11,232 bases of DNA from an uncultured archaeon. Its GTDB lineage: Archaea; Asgardarchaeota; Thorarchaeia; Thorarchaeales; CAZPUN01. The stretch is from assembly GCA_964589775.1 (NCBI GenBank), contig CAZPUN010000049.1, positions 1-11,232 on the forward strand. The letters are read 5' to 3'. Below are positions 824-8,928 of the stretch, in pieces (the first letter of the stretch is position 1; each line of letters begins with the position of its first letter). A program made the position numbers and the translations under genes. Under the pieces are notes generated by a model. It ran no database searches and was not told the origin of the DNA. It was given only the letters and a program-made list of their open reading frames with translations.

Positions 824-1636
824 TTATTTTTTAAGTATGTCATACATTTCTTTTAGTATCTTTTTGACTTCCTTAATTTCTTCTATTGTTTCGGCTGCTA
901 TTTCAGAGGCTTCGGATGCCTTTTCGAATGCGAGTTGGGATTTTTCAGAGGCTTCGGATGCCTTTTCGAATGCGAGTTGGGATTTTTCAGAGGCTTCGGA
1001 TGCCTTTTCGAATGCGAGTTGAGATTTTTCAGAGGCTTCAGATGCCTTTTCAATAGATAGGTCTACTTTCTCTTCAGTTATTAAGACACGACGCAAGTAT
1101 TCAAATTGAATTGCATCGTTTATGGCTAGTGGCGAAAAGTTTTCACAATTTTCGCGTTCTGCTTTTTCGTATATTTTCATTTTAAGTATATACATTGCTT
1201 CCTCTTGCGGATATTGTGTGATTTCATTAGGCAAGTAGATAAATATTAAAATTGTTTTATAATCGCCCGTTTTCTTATCATTACATACAAAAATAGATAC
1301 CAATAATCCATCTTTATCATATGTCAGTTCAGACCATAATTTTTTGAAGGTAGCTGTTATATCTCCACTTACCGCCGTTTTTGCATTTATTTTTCTTATT
1401 ATTTTTTCATTTTTATATAATTCAATATCTCCACTATCACGTGGTTGTGGTCCTGGATATACTTTTATATCATCGAAATCTATATCTAAATCTCTTTTTA
1501 ATGCTTCACGATCTTCAGAAATGACCTTTACAGTAAATTTTCCAATATCAATAGGATGCTGTACAAAAATTACTCTGATTATTTCTTCCAATGGTCTTTG
1601 AATAAATTTAATTCCTTTATCATTAGTAAAATTCAT
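824..1636 (-). CDS. Hypothetical protein (270 aa): globular N-terminal domain (possibly restriction-endonuclease-like) plus C-terminal heptad-repeat coiled coil
   Basis: ATG-initiated ORF with a TATA box at the expected distance. Residues ~196-245 are repeats of EKASEASEKSQLAF. The N-terminal pattern is E17/E18...GD70IEL...IN84AK86T. The ORF is well supported; the function is not. Confidence 0.75.
   Translation of the reverse strand: MNFTNDKGIKFIQRPLEEIIRVIFVQHPIDIGKFTVKVISEDREALKRDLDIDFDDIKVYPGPQPRDSGDIELYKNEKIIRKINAKTAVSGDITATFKKLWSELTYDKDGLLVSIFVCNDKKTGDYKTILIFIYLPNEITQYPQEEAMYILKMKIYEKAERENCENFSPLAINDAIQFEYLRRVLITEEKVDLSIEKASEASEKSQLAFEKASEASEKSQLAFEKASEASEKSQLAFEKASEASEIAAETIEEIKEVKKILKEMYDILKK
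901..1051. repeat. 42-bp intragenic tandem repeat, about 3.6 copies
   Basis: Unit tttcagaggcttcggatgccttttcgaatgcgagttgggatt at 901-942 and 943-984 (identical), 985-1026 (one substitution) and a partial copy at 1027-1051 (one substitution). No spacers. Encodes 14 aa, i.e. two heptads. Confidence 0.97.
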
Positions 1637-1657
1637 AATATAGATTTATTTCTAAAA

Positions 1658-1673
1658 TTTATAAAATTTTGTA
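1658..1673 (-). promoter_or_regulatory. Putative archaeal promoter (TATA box TTTATAAA with A-rich BRE-like segment) for the 824..1636 gene, probably leaderless
   Basis: tttataaa at 1658-1665 lies 22-29 nt upstream of the ATG at 1636 and is preceded on the minus strand by tacaaaat. The AT-rich background lowers specificity. Confidence 0.5.
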
Positions 1674-1799
1674 AATAAGTTTGATTAAATAAATTTATTG
1701 TATTGTGGAGATAAAAATGATTTTAAGTTAAGATACTATTTAATTAGTAGGAACCGGGTTGTGACAAAATATTAGCTAAAAAATAGCATGAACTAGGAT

Positions 1800-2582
1800 G
1801 TGACTAAATTGGATATTGCAGTTTCTGTACAAGATCTTAAGAAAAGTTATGGAACTCTTGAAGCACTAAAAGGTTTAACATTTGAGATTAAATCAGGAGA
1901 AATTTATGGGCTTCTTGGTCCAAATGGAGCTGGAAAAACTACTACCATCAAAATTCTCATGGGGCTCCTCAAACCAAATGGTGGGAATGTTAATGTTTTA
2001 GGATATGATCCACAAGAGGATCCAATTTCTGTAAAGCAACTTGTAGGATATGTGCCTGAAGAGATAACTCTTTTTGATTCTTTAACGCCAAATGAGTTTT
2101 TTGAATTCATAGCATCCATAAGAAAAATAGATTCTCTCGTTGCTATTCGGCGAACCCAGGCATTAATGGAAGCATTAGATGCGGTTCAATATGTAAATAA
2201 ACCCATTGCAACTTTAAGTCATGGGAATCGCCAAAAAGTAGCTATTGTTTCTGCAATTTTGCATGATCCCCAGCTATTAATTCTTGATGAACCTTTTTCT
2301 GGTATAGATGCATTATCGATAAAAGTTATACAAGAGATGATTAAGAGTTTCGTAAAATCTGGCAAAACCGTATTATTCTCAACTCACATAATGAAGATGG
2401 CTGAAAGTTTATGTACGCGAATTGGAATTATTAATGAAGGTATTTTAATTGCTGAAGGCAGTATGGATGAGCTTAAGCAAAAATCTGATGAAACGGATCT
2501 TGAATCTGTATTTCTAAAGCTCACGGAGCAAGAAGAGGATGTATCTGAGCGATTAGACCTGATAAGAGGTGCATTCAGTTGA
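1800..2582 (+). CDS. ABC-2/multidrug-type ABC transporter ATP-binding protein
   Basis: Walker A GPNGAGKTT, Q-loop region GYVPE, signature-like LSHGN, Walker B LLILDEP, H-loop STH. GTG start. Confidence 0.95.
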   Translation: MTKLDIAVSVQDLKKSYGTLEALKGLTFEIKSGEIYGLLGPNGAGKTTTIKILMGLLKPNGGNVNVLGYDPQEDPISVKQLVGYVPEEITLFDSLTPNEFFEFIASIRKIDSLVAIRRTQALMEALDAVQYVNKPIATLSHGNRQKVAIVSAILHDPQLLILDEPFSGIDALSIKVIQEMIKSFVKSGKTVLFSTHIMKMAESLCTRIGIINEGILIAEGSMDELKQKSDETDLESVFLKLTEQEEDVSERLDLIRGAFS

Positions 2583-4192
2583 AGTTCAGTGAACTTTGGC
2601 AAATTTCAAAAACAGTCGAGCAGGAACAAAACTTCAGGTCTGCATTATTACAAGCGGGCGTAAAAAAAGATATGGTATTAAGTGAGAAGGATCGTGCCCT
2701 TCAAAGAGCGATGAAATCTGGTGGCCGATTCAAATACATAATTGCATTCTTTTATATAATGATCGTATTTTCTAGCACGCTTCCATTATTTTATAGTGCC
2801 GCTCCCGTGTTTCTTCTAAACATAAAGGCAATTACTGTTGCTTCAGCATATCTTTCAAGCTTTTTCATTATATTTTTCTTTAGCATGGTAAGAAACTCAG
2901 ATCCTTCTGTAGAAGAAATTTTCAGATTTCTTAGAATGCAAAATTTAAGTGACAAAGATGCATCAACTATAATCTTTCTTGCATGGATTCGATTTTATCT
3001 TCCATTACTCATAAGTGCTGTAATTTTGACACCCATTGCAGGATATTTATCTTCCGGTTCTTTACTTTTCGCTTTAGCAAATACTTTTGTGCTTTTTGCA
3101 GATATCGCAGTCGCAATAGCATTAAGTTTTAAAGTTTCTAAATTCATGATCATTCAAACTCGTCGTGGCAACAGTGGAAAATCAACAACATTAATTCGCA
3201 TATTTACTTTACTGGGTTACACAATCAGTATTGGCGCATTATACTTTGCCATGTTGATACCTCAATCTGTATATGATTATGTTTTGACTGCAAATCTAAA
3301 TTTACTTGACCCGCCATATCTTTACTTACTGCTTATTCCATTTATTGGTGTTGCATATCTTGTTAGTTTGATATTATATCCTATTTCCTTAACAACTATG
3401 CAATTGCTTATACTTGGTATTTCATTGCTTCTACTAATACTCCCAGCACTCCTCAGTATTTCTTCAATAAATAGCTCCATCAAGGATATTTCCCAATGGC
3501 GAATTAAGATATCCGGCGGGAAAGTTACATCTGAAATTCGAATGAAAATTCGAGGGGCTCTTAAATCTCTCATAATTACAGACCTTAGAATCTCATTACG
3601 CGACCCTTCCCGTATGGGCATTCTAGCATTACCTTTATTTCTACCCATCTTCTTGATAGTGTTTAAATTAGTTGGAAGTTCATTTATGGAATTCTTTATG
3701 TTCGGTTATTTTGCTGCCATGGCGTTCATTATTTCAATATGGTCGCTTTTGGTATTTGATGTTCGTGGTGGTTCATATCTTGCATTGCTTCCATTACGTT
3801 CAAAAACAATTGCTATATCAAAAGTTATTCTTGTTTCATTATTGCTGATTCCCGGCATTGCAACTGGATTAATCATTTACTATATCGATTATGGTGACTT
3901 TATCGTACTAATGTATCCCATAATATTATATCTAACATTAATTGGTGCTGGATTCGTTGAGATCTACATAATGGCAAAGATGCTTGGTGAAGGATACATA
4001 GCAGTTATGAAAGTAGAATCTCAGGTGTCAGCAGGAATTGTAACAGTTCTTACTTTATCTCCAATAATAATAACACCATTGATTTTAGCATATGCTGTAT
4101 TTCAAGGTATTCTGGGTGTCATTGTGGGGCTTGTCATTGCTGTAATTTTCGATATGGCGTTTTACAGATTACTCGATCTTTTGAGGGATTAA
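2579..4192 (+). CDS. ABC exporter permease (multi-pass, about 12 TM segments in two halves)
   Basis: Highly hydrophobic. TTG start overlaps the ATPase stop (TTGA, 4-nt overlap suggesting translational coupling). Internal 'SLIITDLRISLRDP' amphipathic motif is typical of ABC-2-like permease repeats. Confidence 0.8.
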   Translation: MKFSELWQISKTVEQEQNFRSALLQAGVKKDMVLSEKDRALQRAMKSGGRFKYIIAFFYIMIVFSSTLPLFYSAAPVFLLNIKAITVASAYLSSFFIIFFFSMVRNSDPSVEEIFRFLRMQNLSDKDASTIIFLAWIRFYLPLLISAVILTPIAGYLSSGSLLFALANTFVLFADIAVAIALSFKVSKFMIIQTRRGNSGKSTTLIRIFTLLGYTISIGALYFAMLIPQSVYDYVLTANLNLLDPPYLYLLLIPFIGVAYLVSLILYPISLTTMQLLILGISLLLLILPALLSISSINSSIKDISQWRIKISGGKVTSEIRMKIRGALKSLIITDLRISLRDPSRMGILALPLFLPIFLIVFKLVGSSFMEFFMFGYFAAMAFIISIWSLLVFDVRGGSYLALLPLRSKTIAISKVILVSLLLIPGIATGLIIYYIDYGDFIVLMYPIILYLTLIGAGFVEIYIMAKMLGEGYIAVMKVESQVSAGIVTVLTLSPIIITPLILAYAVFQGILGVIVGLVIAVIFDMAFYRLLDLLRD

Positions 4193-4216
4193 AATTTTCC
4201 CCCTTTTATTTTATTT
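4193..4216 (+). terminator. Possible archaeal pyrimidine/oligo-T terminator after the ABC operon
   Basis: aaattttcccccttttattttattt immediately follows the TAA at 4192. Confidence 0.3.
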
Positions 4217-4274
4217 AGCAGATTATGAATTTATATTTGTACAGACCGTATTAATTTAATAAAAGTAAATTATA

Positions 4275-4282
4275 TTTTATAA
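4275..4282 (+). promoter_or_regulatory. Putative TATA box for lhr-rnc
   Basis: ttttataa lies 25-32 nt upstream of the ATG at 4307. Several other AT-rich candidates are nearby. Confidence 0.35.
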
Positions 4283-4306
4283 TAGCACATTATATAGGAA
4301 TGTATC

Positions 4307-7138
4307 ATGGAACCCAGTAATGTATTTTCTTTATTATCTCCCAAATTGCAGGAACAATTGAAAGAAATCGGATTCATTACACCTACATCTCCTCAAACTA
4401 AGGCTATCCCTGAGATTATTTCAGGACGTCATGTGCTTTTGATTTCTCCAACAGGGTCTGGAAAAACTGAAGCCGCATTACTTCCTATTATCGACTTTAT
4501 TGTTCGTGAAAATAATAGAATGCCTTTGAAAGGGATTGTTGCTTTGTACATTACACCCCTACGGGCTTTAAATAATGATATTTTGGTTAGAATGATCGAT
4601 TTTGCAGCACAAATGGGCGTAAAAATTGAAGTTCGTCATGGCGATACTACGCAGTATCAAAGGCGAAAGCAAGCATTAAAGCCTCCAGACATTTTGATAA
4701 CGACTCCTGAAACACTTCAAGCAATACTACCTGCGCCTGTCATGCGAGAGCATCTCAAGAACATTAAATTTGTAATTGTTGATGAAATTCATGAATTGGC
4801 TTCTTCGAAACGTGGGGCTCAGCTTTCTGTTGCTCTTGAGCGATTAGAAGAATTAATAGGTCATGCTTATCAAAGAATTGGACTTTCCGCAACTGTACAA
4901 AATCCAAAGACAATTGCTCGTTTTCTTGGTGGTAAGGGTCGCGATGTAAAGATAATTGAAATTGAAAATAAAAAGAAACTTAACATACTTGTGGAAACCC
5001 CTCACAAATCTGAAAAGCCTGATAGTTCTGTTTCGCGTATTTTTCGAATTAAGAGAATTGCAGAACTTATAGAAAATCATAGTGGGATTCTCATATTTTG
5101 TAATACTAGACGAACTGCTGAGACAATTTCTCGATTACTAAATGAAATTAAAAAGGATCTATCCATTCTGGTTCACCATAGCTCATTATCTAAAGAAGTT
5201 CGTGAAGAGGCTGAACGCCTATTCAAAGCAGGAAAACTAAAAGCAATAGTTGCAACATCGTCCCTTGAGCTTGGTATAGACATTGGTCATGTGGATTATG
5301 TAATACAATACGCGTCACCTAAGGAAGTGCATCGTCTAATTCAGAGAGTTGGGCGTTCCGAACATAAAGAAAAAACCGTATCTCAAGGTTCTATCATAAC
5401 ATATCCAACATTAGATGATATGTTTGAATCACTTGTTATCGCTTATAATGCTGCACATGGAACAATTGAAAAAATTCGTCCTCATATTCTTCCTTTTGAT
5501 GTTATGACGCATCAAATAGCAGGAATTATCATGGATTATAAAGAAACTGATGTCTATAAGATTTATAATATATTGACCCGAGCTTATCCGTTTATGGATT
5601 TAACGCCTGAGGAATTCAAGAAAGTAATGGACTTTATGGAACAGCAATGGATGTTCAAACGCGAGCGGACAAAAATATTTACAAAACGAAAAACTCGCAT
5701 GTATTATTATTCTGAACTGTCTATGATTCCGGATCAACAGAAATATCTCGTTCGTGATGAAGTTTCTCACATGCGAATTGGATTTCTAGATGAAGATTTT
5801 GTAGCTAGTTATGCGAATCGCGGTGATATTATTGTTCTACAAGGAAACCTATGGGAAGTAATTGATATTGATGGCGATAATCGAGAAGTAAAATGCGTTC
5901 AAGTGAAATCTTCTGAAAGTCGTGTTCCCCATTGGGAAGGTGAGACAATTCCTGTTCCATATGAAGTAGCTCAAGAAGTTGGCAAAATCTGGCATGAATC
6001 CATAAGTGCTGGGATAGATTCTGTGGTTTCAAAATACGAAACGGAACAGATTTCAGTACATGAAAATTTGAAAATACTTTCTGGAAAAATAATAGCAAAA
6101 CAGAAAGCGAGTGGTGTGCATCCCTCAGACACAAAAATTGTCATTGAATATTTTGGTAATCATTTGATAATGCATGCACCCTTTGGAACACGAATAAATA
6201 ACACATTGGCACTATATTTAAGTATTCAATCTACGCTAAGACATGGTTTTGACATTGCATCTGATTTTGATGCATATCGTATTCTTCTTTCAAGTAACAA
6301 GACCATAGATCCAAACATAATAAAACAAATAATGTTTGAGACAACTTCAGATGAGTTATTATCTCTCGTTAAAACTGCGATAAAGAATACAAAGCTATAC
6401 GAATTCCGCTTTTTACATGTGGCTCAAAGGTTTGGCATAATAAAGAAAAACTCCGAACGGACAACCGCAGATCTAAAACGGGCAATCAGAATTTTTAAAA
6501 AATCTGTTGTAGAAGAAGAGACTATTAATGAGATTCTTCATGATAAATTGGATTTAATTGGCACATCACATGTTTTCGAGAAAATACAAAATAAAGCTAT
6601 TGAGCTTTCAATTGTACCTAAAAGCATAAATGAAGCAAGCCCATTATCTCTATATCTACTTGAAAAATCTAATCCGGACCTTGCAGCTGAACTATCAATC
6701 GAGAATGAAATGCTCGAGTTAGTAGAGCAAAGATTATTGAATCATGAGTTCAAATTTGTTTGCATTTTTAAAGGAGACTGGGAAGAAACACTTCCTGTTC
6801 GCCTGGTTGAATTTCCATTGAAGTGCCCTGTTTGTGGTTCTGTGTTCATTAGCACGACTTATACATCCGATAAAGAACTACCGAGAATAGCTCGTAAGCG
6901 ATTTAGAGGTGAAAAATTAAAACGCGATGAATCCGAAATATTTCGACGTGCATGGACTACTTCGTCCTTGATCCAATCATATAAGATGGACGCATTAATC
7001 ACGCTAGCCGGATTTGGAGTAGGCCCTACAACTGCTGCGAGAATATTAGCAAGACCTCACAAAACACGAAAAGACTTAATAAAAGATATCATAGAAGCTG
7101 AAAAGAATTATGTGAAAACGAAACCTTTTTGGGAATAA
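4307..7138 (+). CDS. lhr: Lhr-family SF2 DEAD/H-box helicase, archaeal type with C-terminal Cys-rich and helix-hairpin-helix-like extension
   Basis: Motif I SPTGSGKT, Ia YITPLRALNND, VRHGDT, ITTPETL, II DEIH, III GLSATV, HHSSLS, V ATSSLELGIDIG, VI QRVGRS. Lhr-specific SMIPD, IGFLDEDF and PHWEGE motifs. C-terminal CPVCGS and GFGVGPTTAARIL. Confidence 0.95.
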   Translation: MEPSNVFSLLSPKLQEQLKEIGFITPTSPQTKAIPEIISGRHVLLISPTGSGKTEAALLPIIDFIVRENNRMPLKGIVALYITPLRALNNDILVRMIDFAAQMGVKIEVRHGDTTQYQRRKQALKPPDILITTPETLQAILPAPVMREHLKNIKFVIVDEIHELASSKRGAQLSVALERLEELIGHAYQRIGLSATVQNPKTIARFLGGKGRDVKIIEIENKKKLNILVETPHKSEKPDSSVSRIFRIKRIAELIENHSGILIFCNTRRTAETISRLLNEIKKDLSILVHHSSLSKEVREEAERLFKAGKLKAIVATSSLELGIDIGHVDYVIQYASPKEVHRLIQRVGRSEHKEKTVSQGSIITYPTLDDMFESLVIAYNAAHGTIEKIRPHILPFDVMTHQIAGIIMDYKETDVYKIYNILTRAYPFMDLTPEEFKKVMDFMEQQWMFKRERTKIFTKRKTRMYYYSELSMIPDQQKYLVRDEVSHMRIGFLDEDFVASYANRGDIIVLQGNLWEVIDIDGDNREVKCVQVKSSESRVPHWEGETIPVPYEVAQEVGKIWHESISAGIDSVVSKYETEQISVHENLKILSGKIIAKQKASGVHPSDTKIVIEYFGNHLIMHAPFGTRINNTLALYLSIQSTLRHGFDIASDFDAYRILLSSNKTIDPNIIKQIMFETTSDELLSLVKTAIKNTKLYEFRFLHVAQRFGIIKKNSERTTADLKRAIRIFKKSVVEEETINEILHDKLDLIGTSHVFEKIQNKAIELSIVPKSINEASPLSLYLLEKSNPDLAAELSIENEMLELVEQRLLNHEFKFVCIFKGDWEETLPVRLVEFPLKCPVCGSVFISTTYTSDKELPRIARKRFRGEKLKRDESEIFRRAWTTSSLIQSYKMDALITLAGFGVGPTTAARILARPHKTRKDLIKDIIEAEKNYVKTKPFWE

Positions 7139-7165
7139 ATTTCGAAGAAAAATTGGGGATTTGTC

Positions 7166-7837
7166 TTGATAGATACTAAAAAGTTAGAAAAAATTGTAGG
7201 GCAAAAAATAAACGATATCTCATTGTATAGGTCTGTCTTTTTACTTCCTGCTTTTAATAAGAATGAAAATTATCAAAGATTAGAATTCCTTGGCGATACG
7301 ATTTTAGATATGATTTTCGCAAAATATCTGTTCTTTTTTGAGCCTAAGCTATCTGCACACGAGATGACTCAGATACGTTCAAAAATCGTAAAAGACAACC
7401 AATTGGCAAAATTTGGCTATAAAGTCGAGTTAGATAACTTTTTTGAAGGTAAGAGTAAAAAGATTCTAAATAATTCCATAATGGCGGATATCGTAGAGGC
7501 TTTGATAGCTGCTATCTATTTAGACCTCGGATTTGAGTATGCTTACGATTGGGTAATTAAACATATGAAATCAATAATTCTGGACGCTATCTCATCTCAC
7601 AACTTGATAGACCCTAAATCACAACTAAAAGAACTAATGAATAAGCGAGTTAATAAAGACCCGATTTTTATGGTTATCGAAAGCCGACAGATTGATGGAT
7701 ATTCATGGATTTATAAAGTAAAGGTTATTGCAGATCTTGGTTCTGGCAAAAAGGAAGCGATTGGTACAGGTCCAAATAAGAAAGCTGCAGAAAAAGATGC
7801 AGCTAAAAATTGGCTTGAGAAATATTATACGCACTGA
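7166..7837 (+). CDS. rnc: Ribonuclease III (RNase III domain plus C-terminal dsRBD)
   Basis: Signature YQRLEFLGDTILD (E40, D44) and second motif MADIVEALIAAIYLD (D108, E111). dsRBD DPKSQLKE...GTGPNKKAAEKDAA. TTG start preceded by SD-like ggggat (7155-7160). Confidence 0.95.
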   Translation: MIDTKKLEKIVGQKINDISLYRSVFLLPAFNKNENYQRLEFLGDTILDMIFAKYLFFFEPKLSAHEMTQIRSKIVKDNQLAKFGYKVELDNFFEGKSKKILNNSIMADIVEALIAAIYLDLGFEYAYDWVIKHMKSIILDAISSHNLIDPKSQLKELMNKRVNKDPIFMVIESRQIDGYSWIYKVKVIADLGSGKKEAIGTGPNKKAAEKDAAKNWLEKYYTH

Positions 7838-7839
7838 TA

Positions 7840-8928
7840 TTAATTTTTAACAAGTGCAGGCGAAACTTTGTAAATTATATTTTTAATTACCTGTATCTTT
7901 TCATTATCTATGATTCTATTATCATTATATTTTGATAGCTCATTATCAATTTGTAAGGTTATTTCTTTTATGAATTCAAAAATTCCAAAATTGGGCTTGT
8001 TTGAAACTATAACTGTAATAATTCCTGTTTTTTTACCCCAATTTATTATTATTGAGTTACTATATGTTATTATTTCATCAACCTTATCTACATTTAACAT
8101 TTCAGGGATCATATGTAAAATCGCATTTATTATGGCACCATGTTTTAAATCAACCTCTTTTCCAGAATCACTATATGAATATAGTATGTTGCCCCCTTTA
8201 TCTAATACAAGAAGTGTATTTATGTTAAATAGAAAATATGATGAAATCACATCACTTTTTCTTAATATAATGAATTCAAAAATGGCTCCGAAAGCTATTG
8301 CTGCTAAAAATGAAAATCCCATTCTAGATAAGATCTTAAATAAAGTTGAATCAATGGCTATAAATACTGACATAATAATGGATGATGTAATTCCAAATAA
8401 AATTTGAGTTATTATTTTTTGGGGCTTAATATTATTTTTTAATATGTCACGTGAGACCTTTATCATATATATCATAAAAATAATGAGAATTAAATTTGCA
8501 AGAACTCTTGATTCTATAGATATTTCCCATGGATATGGTATTTTTGAAGTTGAAAAAATCATAGGATGTGTAATAATCGAAAAAGTATATAGTCCCTCTA
8601 AGAACGAAAAAAATGATGTTGTTATTGTGGGTAATTTTGTGCTTTTTAGATAGCTGTAAAACAAAAATAGAATCATAAATCCATATATTGGTGTAATTCT
8701 TCCTAATAACCAGAAAATAAAGGATAATAGATCTTGTGAGCTTTCAATGAACATATATGATAAAAGCATAAAAACGCCTGAAAGTACCATCGATATGAAG
8801 AAAAATCCTAATATGCAATCTAATATTGATTTATTTTTCTTTCCCCTATGAATCAAAATATATGAATCTAATCCTGCGAAGATTATTGCAATGATCGATT
8901 CAAATATTACGACATAGAATTCTATCAT
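7840..8928 (-). CDS. Seven-TM membrane protein with C-terminal soluble longin/profilin-like fold domain
   Basis: Seven hydrophobic segments in residues ~1-225. Residues ~236-358 read INTLLVLDKGGNILYSYS...GAIINAILHMIPEML...VDEIITYSNSIIINWG...IITVIVSNK followed by two helices, matching the beta-beta-alpha-beta-beta-beta-alpha-alpha pattern of longin-like domains. Assignment is by eye. Confidence 0.65.
   Translation of the reverse strand: MIEFYVVIFESIIAIIFAGLDSYILIHRGKKNKSILDCILGFFFISMVLSGVFMLLSYMFIESSQDLLSFIFWLLGRITPIYGFMILFLFYSYLKSTKLPTITTSFFSFLEGLYTFSIITHPMIFSTSKIPYPWEISIESRVLANLILIIFMIYMIKVSRDILKNNIKPQKIITQILFGITSSIIMSVFIAIDSTLFKILSRMGFSFLAAIAFGAIFEFIILRKSDVISSYFLFNINTLLVLDKGGNILYSYSDSGKEVDLKHGAIINAILHMIPEMLNVDKVDEIITYSNSIIINWGKKTGIITVIVSNKPNFGIFEFIKEITLQIDNELSKYNDNRIIDNEKIQVIKNIIYKVSPALVKN

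Follow-up and report, generated by a model that had tools for sequence, protein, structure and literature searches.

A lineage-specific lhr–rnc gene pair in an Asgard archaeon, probably an operon of two separate housekeeping proteins

Does a helicase gene followed at once by an RNase III gene in an archaeon signify that the two products work together? The question is raised by a contig of 11,232 nt (GenBank assembly GCA_964589775.1, contig CAZPUN010000049.1; its whole length is here called the window), in which lhr and rnc lie in tandem and in one reading frame. An earlier note, made from the letters alone, had seen in the pair an Lhr–RNase III module resembling Dicer, and had proposed a survey of gene neighbourhoods, a check for true fusions and a search of the genome for Argonaute. 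The source, which that note had taken for an archaeon, is an Asgard archaeon from the phylum that also contains the genome encoding HrAgo1. A helicase–RNase III partnership in such an organism would, if true, bear on how the architecture of Dicer was assembled before or during eukaryogenesis.

Re-reading the sequence bore out the arrangement as first described. On the + strand, lhr (4307–7138; ORF and Pfam) runs from an ATG to a TAA at 7136–7138 and encodes an aLhr1-type Lhr helicase of 943 aa, and rnc (7166–7837; ORF and Pfam) runs from a TTG to a TGA and encodes a class-1 RNase III of 223 aa. Both starts are 2 mod 3, and the 27-nt spacer between the genes (7139–7165, +), which would read ISKKNWGFV, is stop-free and in frame with each of them; the hypothetical read-through product is thus 943 + 1 + 9 + 223 = 1176 codons long. 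Ahead of lhr lies an AT-rich spacer (4193–4306, +), read from the sequence and marked by a dip in G+C. On the other side, an ORF for a multi-pass membrane protein without a Pfam match (7840–8928, −) converges on the pair, ends 2 nt past rnc and forms the 3' boundary of the unit. The G+C content of rnc equals that of lhr, and there is therefore no sign that rnc was recently imported.

The identity of the helicase is clear. The protein contains DEAD (136 bits), Helicase_C (83 bits), WH_Lhr (PF19306, 53 bits) and DEAD_assoc (PF08494, 106 bits) domains, all of these matches, like those of the RNase III, exceeding the Pfam cut-offs; the SF2 RecA1 and RecA2 core is present, and the DExH motif reads VDEIHE. 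An extra C-terminal cysteine-rich motif separates aLhr1 from aLhr2 (PMC8301817), and the C-terminal tail of the window protein, a stretch of ∼135 aa behind DEAD_assoc, holds H813, C819, C840 and C843, which are invariant in comparison with the proteins of the sister lineage described below. By domain content and tail it is an aLhr1, and the His/Cys tail is a putative metal site. Its full-length identity to the Lhr of many archaea is ∼40%, and lhr is the sole DEAD_assoc gene of the 96.75%-complete genome. Judged by sequence, this is a helicase of general occurrence in archaea, present here in a single copy and not as a dedicated paralogue, and because there is one aLhr1-type copy with this general level of identity we assume that lhr was inherited vertically. 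By homology, Lhr would use ATP to translocate 3' to 5' and to unwind DNA as well as RNA:DNA duplexes.

The rnc product has one Ribonuclease_3 domain (PF00636, 70.5 bits, residues 37–122) and one dsRBD (dsrm, PF00035, 34 bits, residues 150–219). In HMMER alignments, residues E40, D44, D108 and E111 fall on the catalytic positions of Drosha RIIIDb; they do not vary in the sister RNase III and are the counterparts of E41, D45, D114 and E117 of Escherichia coli. The protein thus has the class-1 layout, with one RNase III domain, one dsRBD, ∼220 aa and four metal-binding acidic residues, as in the bacterial enzymes, to whose solved structures (E. coli, T. maritima, A. aeolicus) it scores 65–71 bits. 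It differs from them in its archaeal host, in reading QRLEFLGD where the bacterial signature is ERLEFLGD, and in missing the equivalog cut-off of TIGR02191 (148.4 against 166.25 bits), a cut-off that no genome out of 400 from the phylum reaches. Bacterial rnc usually stands in an rnc–era context, which the window gene lacks. In the rnc tree, a long branch leads to the window clade, whose grouping with database matches, few of them named and those bacterial, is loose (SH-aLRT 82). This is the sole RNase III gene of the 96.75%-complete genome. The enzyme would, by homology, work as a homodimer that cleaves dsRNA such as rRNA-precursor stems and sense/antisense duplexes. RNase III-family genes are common across the phylum, matching in 281 of 400 genomes; the patchy archaeal distribution stated earlier is not what this phylum shows.

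One way for the two genes to yield one machine would be programmed read-through of the TAA, giving an 1176-aa Lhr–RNase III–dsRBD fusion protein, and the common frame and stop-free linker of nine codons are what such a mechanism would need. They are nevertheless expected in ∼17% of such gaps: at the genome G+C of 35%, the probability that a random codon is a stop is ∼0.07, and an in-frame, stop-free gap of nine codons has a chance of (0.93)^9 × 1/3, ∼0.17 or ∼1 in 6. A crude ORF census of the same genome counted 287 co-directional neighbour pairs separated by 0–60 nt, of which 87 were in frame and stop-free, a figure that is inflated by the longest-ORF rule and still shows that the pattern is common. 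The shared frame is unremarkable, and the caution already voiced that such a gap is not rare by chance was well placed. In the sister lineage Lhr likewise stops at 943 aa (...KPFWD) and the RNase III keeps its length too, so the position of the lhr stop is conserved; rnc has its own Shine–Dalgarno (SD)-like motif and start; and a folding test found nothing unusual in RNA structure at the junction (z = −0.12), with none past the stop. The check for true fusions was negative twice over. A word-indexed search for longer proteins with the RNase III query yielded no Lhr–RNase III fusion, and in an exhaustive HMMER search of 1.84 billion representatives with a query that joined the C-terminal 199 aa of Lhr through the linker to RNase III, no protein matched both halves. 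Multi-stretch matches to this query, considered as candidate Lhr fusions, were all tandem-RNase III, Drosha/Dicer-like proteins. We regard read-through as extremely improbable.

How, then, is rnc expressed? Beyond the 12-TM gene that precedes lhr come terminator-like T-tracts and then, at ∼4271–4298, TATA-like boxes, which makes the spacer at 4193–4306 the putative promoter of the unit. GGGGAT (7155–7160, +) lies 5 nt ahead of the rnc TTG and resembles an SD sequence; the regions upstream of 1195 long ORFs of the genome are G-enriched at −14 to −8, and the GGGG at −11 to −8 of the rnc start falls inside that genome-typical position. The 16S 3' end reads GGATCACCTCCT. The TTG start is supported by the sister RNase III, which is 70% identical, also 223 aa long and begins at the same residue. 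Because the spacer is too short for a promoter and GGGG precedes rnc, co-transcription, which the earlier note had thought likely, is plausible, and the two genes probably form a bicistronic unit.

The alternative is that the adjacency is purely historical and that rnc is transcribed separately, from an internal promoter AATAAATTT at 7133–7141 in the 3' end of lhr, giving an rnc mRNA with a short leader or none. This weak TATA-like element overlaps the lhr stop, lies 25–33 nt before the rnc TTG and could give rise to a separate rnc transcript; a T5 run stands just ahead of the same stop. Such elements are, however, frequent in an AT-rich genome and AT-rich hexamers arise by chance: a bacterial-type promoter/terminator scan, applied here to AT-rich archaeal DNA, gave 25 promoter-like matches in the region against 17 expected in shuffles. 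The SD-like motif at a canonical distance moreover implies a leadered message, and a TTG start is ill suited to leaderless initiation. We therefore hold wholly separate transcription to be unlikely.

If the two proteins functioned together, their genes might be expected to keep company elsewhere, as the proposed neighbourhood survey supposed. In the closest sister lineage they do: three Lhr (943 aa) and three RNase III (223 aa) orthologues, 78% and 70% identical, respectively, to the window proteins, are linked on the same contigs, of 15363, 18155 and 70175 bp, and we infer their direct adjacency there from matching contig sizes alone. With protein identities of 70–78%, this linkage can be simply inherited gene order. 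Elsewhere in the phylum, ∼70 RNase III loci were surveyed, covering at least seven families (f2, f8, f10, f11, f19, f21, f22 and f30), and none had Lhr within 1.5 kb of rnc; rnc was beside none of the 29 Lhr loci of the sister family f2, around which no synteny was found with the window's other genes either. A phylum-wide search with P0006, a protein of the sister lineage, returned nothing above 40% identity except the window itself, and scans of genome contigs with P0006 and of metagenome contigs with clade alignment A1 gave no match. Conserved Lhr microsynteny across archaea has not been reported (PMC8301817). The survey thus went against a split Dicer-like module. On these comparisons, the pairing appears to occur in this lineage and its closest sister alone, and a Dicer-like machine was unsupported by any test.

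A separate observation from the same survey concerns family f2, where Lhr and an EngB-like GTPase (MMR_HSR1) form a tight pair. At all 29 loci the GTPase gene lies downstream of Lhr, whose 3' end it overlaps in a different frame; the EngB-like GTPase of the window's genome lies on another contig.

These results bear on the idea of a dedicated partnership, in which structured RNA or R-loops, once unwound or remodelled by Lhr, would pass to the RNase III dimer, a two-protein analogue of Dicer with a supposed role in RNA surveillance or antiviral defence. Tight linkage, with expression probably coupled, and its retention in the sister lineage are consistent with this, and there are precedents both for Lhr co-transcribed with a ribonuclease, in the rnt–lhr operon of E. 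coli (PMC8301817), and for an Asgard rnc beside a helicase and an Argonaute (PMC11217426). Set against them are the absence of the adjacency from the rest of the phylum's surveyed loci, the lack of a fusion in the databases searched, and a helicase that is a single housekeeping copy rather than a specialized paralogue. The search of the 96.75%-complete genome for Argonaute gave no Piwi match anywhere, and no PAZ; Pfam found neither PAZ nor the Dicer dimerization domain (DUF283) in Lhr or RNase III, and the other ORFs of the window likewise have no Piwi or PAZ, as had been thought. In the rnc tree, the window gene falls outside the Argonaute-linked clade. The helicase family is also unlike that of Dicer, which is Hef/RIG-I-like (PMC5303251), and unlike the SF1 enzyme of the HrAgo1 locus: the best NCBIfam matches of the window Lhr are Lhr-type models (530 and 394 bits, against only 58.7 bits for the Hef model), in keeping with the earlier reservation that the helicase of Dicer is not of Lhr type. 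With the pair confined to one lineage, a housekeeping Lhr, no Argonaute and no fusion, the comparative evidence gives no reason to see lhr–rnc as such a partnership, and we rate it distinctly unlikely. A related proposal is that the sole Lhr and a divergent class-1 RNase III share an operon because they act jointly, the RNase III dimer cleaving what results when Lhr opens or remodels RNA:DNA hybrids or structured RNA, as a two-protein, Argonaute-independent analogue of helicase-assisted dicing or as a module for processing R-loops or rRNA precursors; this we consider a long shot.

We believe that lhr–rnc is probably a lineage-specific two-gene operon encoding two separate housekeeping proteins, presumably without a dedicated joint function. 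Transcription would start from the TATA-like boxes ahead of lhr and continue across the two genes; translation of Lhr would end at the conserved TAA, and ribosomes would start rnc on their own, at the TTG behind the SD-like motif. The juxtaposition would have arisen by rearrangement in an ancestor of this small lineage. That the sister lineage has kept the linkage, and that the partner of Lhr is RNA-related in both families, leaves room for a real functional tie. The side observations made along the way are perhaps more useful than the pair itself.

Compared with known systems, the locus shares with eukaryotic Dicer the order along the DNA of SF2 helicase, RNase III and dsRBD. Dicer, however, is one polypeptide, in which two RNase III domains form an intramolecular dimer and which has a Hef/RIG-I-like helicase, a Dicer dimerization domain and PAZ; here there are two proteins split by a conserved TAA, a single Ribonuclease_3 stretch and an Lhr-type helicase, with no PAZ.

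Within the same phylum, the HrAgo1 locus of 'Candidatus Harpocratesius repetitus' has the order rnc, Argonaute, helicase, and its authors drew a comparison with the domains of Dicer (PMC11217426). We located HrAgo1 in the phylum set (G195/L101) by a full-length match to PDB 8r3z. At both loci, an rnc whose product has an RNase III domain and a dsRBD clusters with a helicase gene, but the helicase there is a 1278-aa SF1 (AAA_11/AAA_12, Upf1-like) protein rather than an SF2 Lhr, a PIWI-clade Argonaute lies between rnc and helicase where the window's genome has no Piwi, and the two rnc genes belong to different clades. In several Asgard families, beyond this published locus, rnc adjoins Argonaute genes.

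The E. coli rnt–lhr operon, like the window, pairs an Lhr-family helicase gene with a ribonuclease gene, and no interaction between its proteins is known (PMC8301817); it is bacterial, has the two genes in the opposite order and encodes, in RNase T, an exonuclease and not an RNase III, and bacterial Lhr has a ∼600-aa C-terminal extension. A further parallel in gene arrangement is the Lhr–EngB pair of family f2, where an orthologous Lhr likewise comes first in a tight pair and the second gene encodes a protein of ∼205–225 aa related to RNA or the ribosome; the partner there is an overlapping GTPase, whereas here it is an RNase III that follows after a 27-nt gap.

The lhr gene occupies 4307–7138 on the forward strand of the window (943 codons, ending with TAA at 7136–7138) and is followed on the same strand by rnc at 7166–7837 (223 codons, TTG start). 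Because both ORFs lie in one frame and the 27 nt spacer between them is stop-free, a single stop codon separates the pair from a reading frame of 1176 codons, just as the earlier note had claimed. The lhr product contains DEAD, Helicase_C, WH_Lhr and DEAD_assoc domains (Pfam), its top-ranked NCBIfam models are those of an Lhr-type helicase, and the C-terminal cysteine-rich motif that defines aLhr1 (Hajj et al., PMC8301817) is formed by H813, C819, C840 and C843. The rnc product combines Ribonuclease_3 and dsRBD domains (Pfam), scores 148 bits against the RNase III model TIGR02191, under its equivalog cut-off of 166 bits, and keeps all four metal-binding residues (E40, D44, D108 and E111), which align with catalytic positions in solved RNase III-family structures. 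At 7274–7360 it reads QRLEFLGD, with Q in place of bacterial E38, and A64 stands where E. coli has E65. Over the whole sequence, the top PDB matches are to human Drosha, in which RIIIDb likewise reads QRMEFLGD; per-domain scores are equal for Drosha and the bacterial enzymes.

The common frame of lhr and rnc is not meaningful. At the genome G+C of 35%, some 7% of random codons would be stops; a nine-codon gap would then stay open in about half of cases and fall in frame in one-third, giving ∼0.17 overall by chance. In a crude genome ORF census, whose longest-ORF rule inflates the count, 87 of 287 co-directional neighbours with gaps of 0–60 nt were also in frame and stop-free; the earlier caveat that such a gap is not rare was well placed. 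Folding of the junction RNA was no better than that of shuffles (z = −0.12). The nearest database relatives, in a sister lineage, are 70% identical for RNase III (P0006, P0125 and P0126, each 223 aa) and 78% identical for Lhr (P0128, P0307 and P0308, each 943 aa). Both protein lengths are conserved between this lineage and the window, as are the Lhr C-terminus (…KPFWD versus …KPFWE) and the RNase III N-terminus; judged from these sequences, the lhr stop and a separate rnc start are kept in the sister lineage. We consider read-through of the lhr stop into rnc, which the shared frame would permit, extremely improbable.

Upstream of lhr is an AT-rich spacer of 114 nt. In it, T-tracts directly follow the 12-TM gene that precedes lhr, and TATA-like boxes lie 10–35 nt upstream of the lhr ATG. 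The 3′ end of the genome's 16S rRNA is GGATCACCTCCT. Across 1195 long ORFs, G is enriched at −14 to −8 upstream of the start, and a GGGG in the lhr–rnc spacer sits at −11 to −8 relative to the rnc TTG. This anatomy, with the convergent gene that closes off rnc (below), suggests a single promoter ahead of lhr and a bicistronic lhr–rnc mRNA on which rnc is initiated independently, by its own SD. The lhr stop is overlapped by a weak TATA-like sequence, AATAAATTT, which could give a separate rnc transcript; we regard separate transcription as unlikely. Most probably the two genes form an operon, in line with the co-transcription proposed earlier. G+C is equal in the two genes. The end of rnc at 7837 is met at 7840 by a convergent gene (7840–8928, reverse strand) for a multi-pass membrane protein of 362 aa whose C-terminal domain is soluble; neither this ORF nor the one for a 270-aa protein that flanks the region (824–1636, reverse strand) has a Pfam match.

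Of 400 genomes from the phylum, 281 had a TIGR02191 match; none of the 400 reached the bacterial equivalog cut-off. This frequency conflicts with an older view that confines RNase III to 'very few mesophilic archaea' (PMC5303251). Among high-quality Asgard genomes, 72 of 90 matched the RNase III family model. Some 70 rnc neighbourhoods, 1.5 kb each side, were drawn from families f8, f10, f11, f19 and f22 (the last with 30 loci from 10 genera), together with six loci of a divergent f2 type and four Argonaute-linked loci. No Lhr was found within 1.5 kb of rnc in these ∼70 loci, with Asgard Lhr proteins included as queries. The neighbours vary by family (ABC ATPase, peptidases, ribosomal protein S19), and no helicase was among the family-specific neighbours identified. 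In f11, rnc adjoins the S19 gene in nine loci (L009:1060–1455 and eight more), a context compatible with a putative ribosome-biogenesis role for Asgard RNase III.

From the Lhr side, a single orthologue (∼40% identity) is present in 37 of 40 genomes of f2, the sister family of the window's f1. None of the 29 f2 loci fetched (L051–L079) has rnc downstream; in all 29, the gene 3′ of Lhr encodes an EngB-like GTPase (MMR_HSR1) of ∼205 aa, followed by a convergent gene. The GTPase gene overlaps the lhr 3′ end by ∼50 nt in another frame, as read in locus L052 (Lhr 1495–4338; GTPase 4289–4924). We found no description of this conserved pair in the literature; the EngB-like gene of the window genome is on contig 13. 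In each of the five f2 genomes in which both were located, Lhr and the RNase III-like gene are on separate contigs. The contigs of the sister-lineage RNase III and Lhr genes match exactly in length (18155, 15363 and 70175 bp), so there both genes share contigs and, from these lengths, are at most 15 kb apart. The survey envisaged in the earlier note thus finds lhr–rnc adjacency absent outside the immediate sister lineage, and from its two sides we infer that the junction is a derived rearrangement.

Among longer RNase III relatives in a word-indexed search, the only helicase-containing ones were eukaryotic Dicers with a Dicer dimerisation domain, and none had Lhr domains. In an exhaustive HMMER search, 1.84 billion representatives were compared with a read-through query that joined the last 199 aa of Lhr to the linker and RNase III. 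Against it a typical Lhr–RNase III fusion would be expected to score ∼170 bits or more and rank third; no protein among the best 150 matched both halves. Multi-stretch matches were rejected as fusions, being tandem RNase III proteins. The window genome (2.16 Mb, 96.75% complete; the sole f1 genome in the set examined) has one DEAD_assoc gene and one RNase III gene, and a Piwi search of it found none. The gene pair described in the earlier note stands in its coordinates, domains and frame, but the Dicer-like module is not supported: the pair is accompanied neither by a fusion nor by Argonaute, PAZ or a specialised helicase. A genuine functional partnership of Lhr and RNase III faces these same absences and a neighbourhood survey negative beyond the immediate sister lineage, and seems to us quite unlikely. 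We believe, with some confidence, that lhr–rnc is an ordinary operon, specific to its lineage, of two nucleic-acid enzymes with housekeeping roles.

In our tree, RNase III of the window and of the sister lineage makes up an isolated long branch, grouped only loosely (SH-aLRT 82) with database matches at 33–41% identity, the few named ones among which are bacterial; it did not group with the Asgard clades of f8 or f11. The f2 RNase III-like protein (∼228 aa; L002:1480–2166, reverse strand, and L003–L007) begins with an uncharacterised N-terminal region of 130 aa, lacks a dsRBD and carries a degenerate signature (VLGLLGD versus ERLEFLGD); it may be non-catalytic. It groups with three of four Argonaute-linked rnc in a quick tree in which long branches meet there. 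These rnc (RNase III + dsRBD) adjoin Piwi-domain Argonaute genes in four genomes from three Asgard families, so the neighbourhood is not limited to the published HrAgo1 locus: L102 (G194) has rnc–Ago and a dsRBD-less RNase III (176-aa open frame), L103 (G368) TIR–rnc–Ago, and L104 (G246) rnc, a Csa3-like gene, Ago and a NERD/UvrD-like helicase.

The fourth, G195, is a single-contig genome of the same phylum as the window. Its Piwi/PAZ protein of 822 aa matches PDB 8r3z 'HrAgo1' along the entire length (1857 bits), which identifies G195 as 'Ca. Harpocratesius repetitus' and the phylum as the Asgard archaea. Asgard rnc and helicase genes flanking HrAgo1 have been likened to Dicer's domains (Bastiaanssen et al., PMC11217426). 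At this locus (L101), rnc (285 aa) and Argonaute (822 aa) are followed by a 1278-aa AAA_11/AAA_12 helicase, which is SF1 rather than Lhr as in the window, and the rnc falls in another clade of the tree. For Dicer itself, Koonin (PMC5303251) traces the helicase to Hef/ERCC4-like helicases of archaea and the RNase III domains to a bacterial source; Lhr belongs to a different SF2 family. Conserved Lhr microsynteny was not found across archaea, and the lhr gene of E. coli undergoes co-transcription with rnt (RNase T), with no protein interaction known (Hajj et al., PMC8301817); this co-transcription is the nearest precedent for the lhr–rnc pair of the window.
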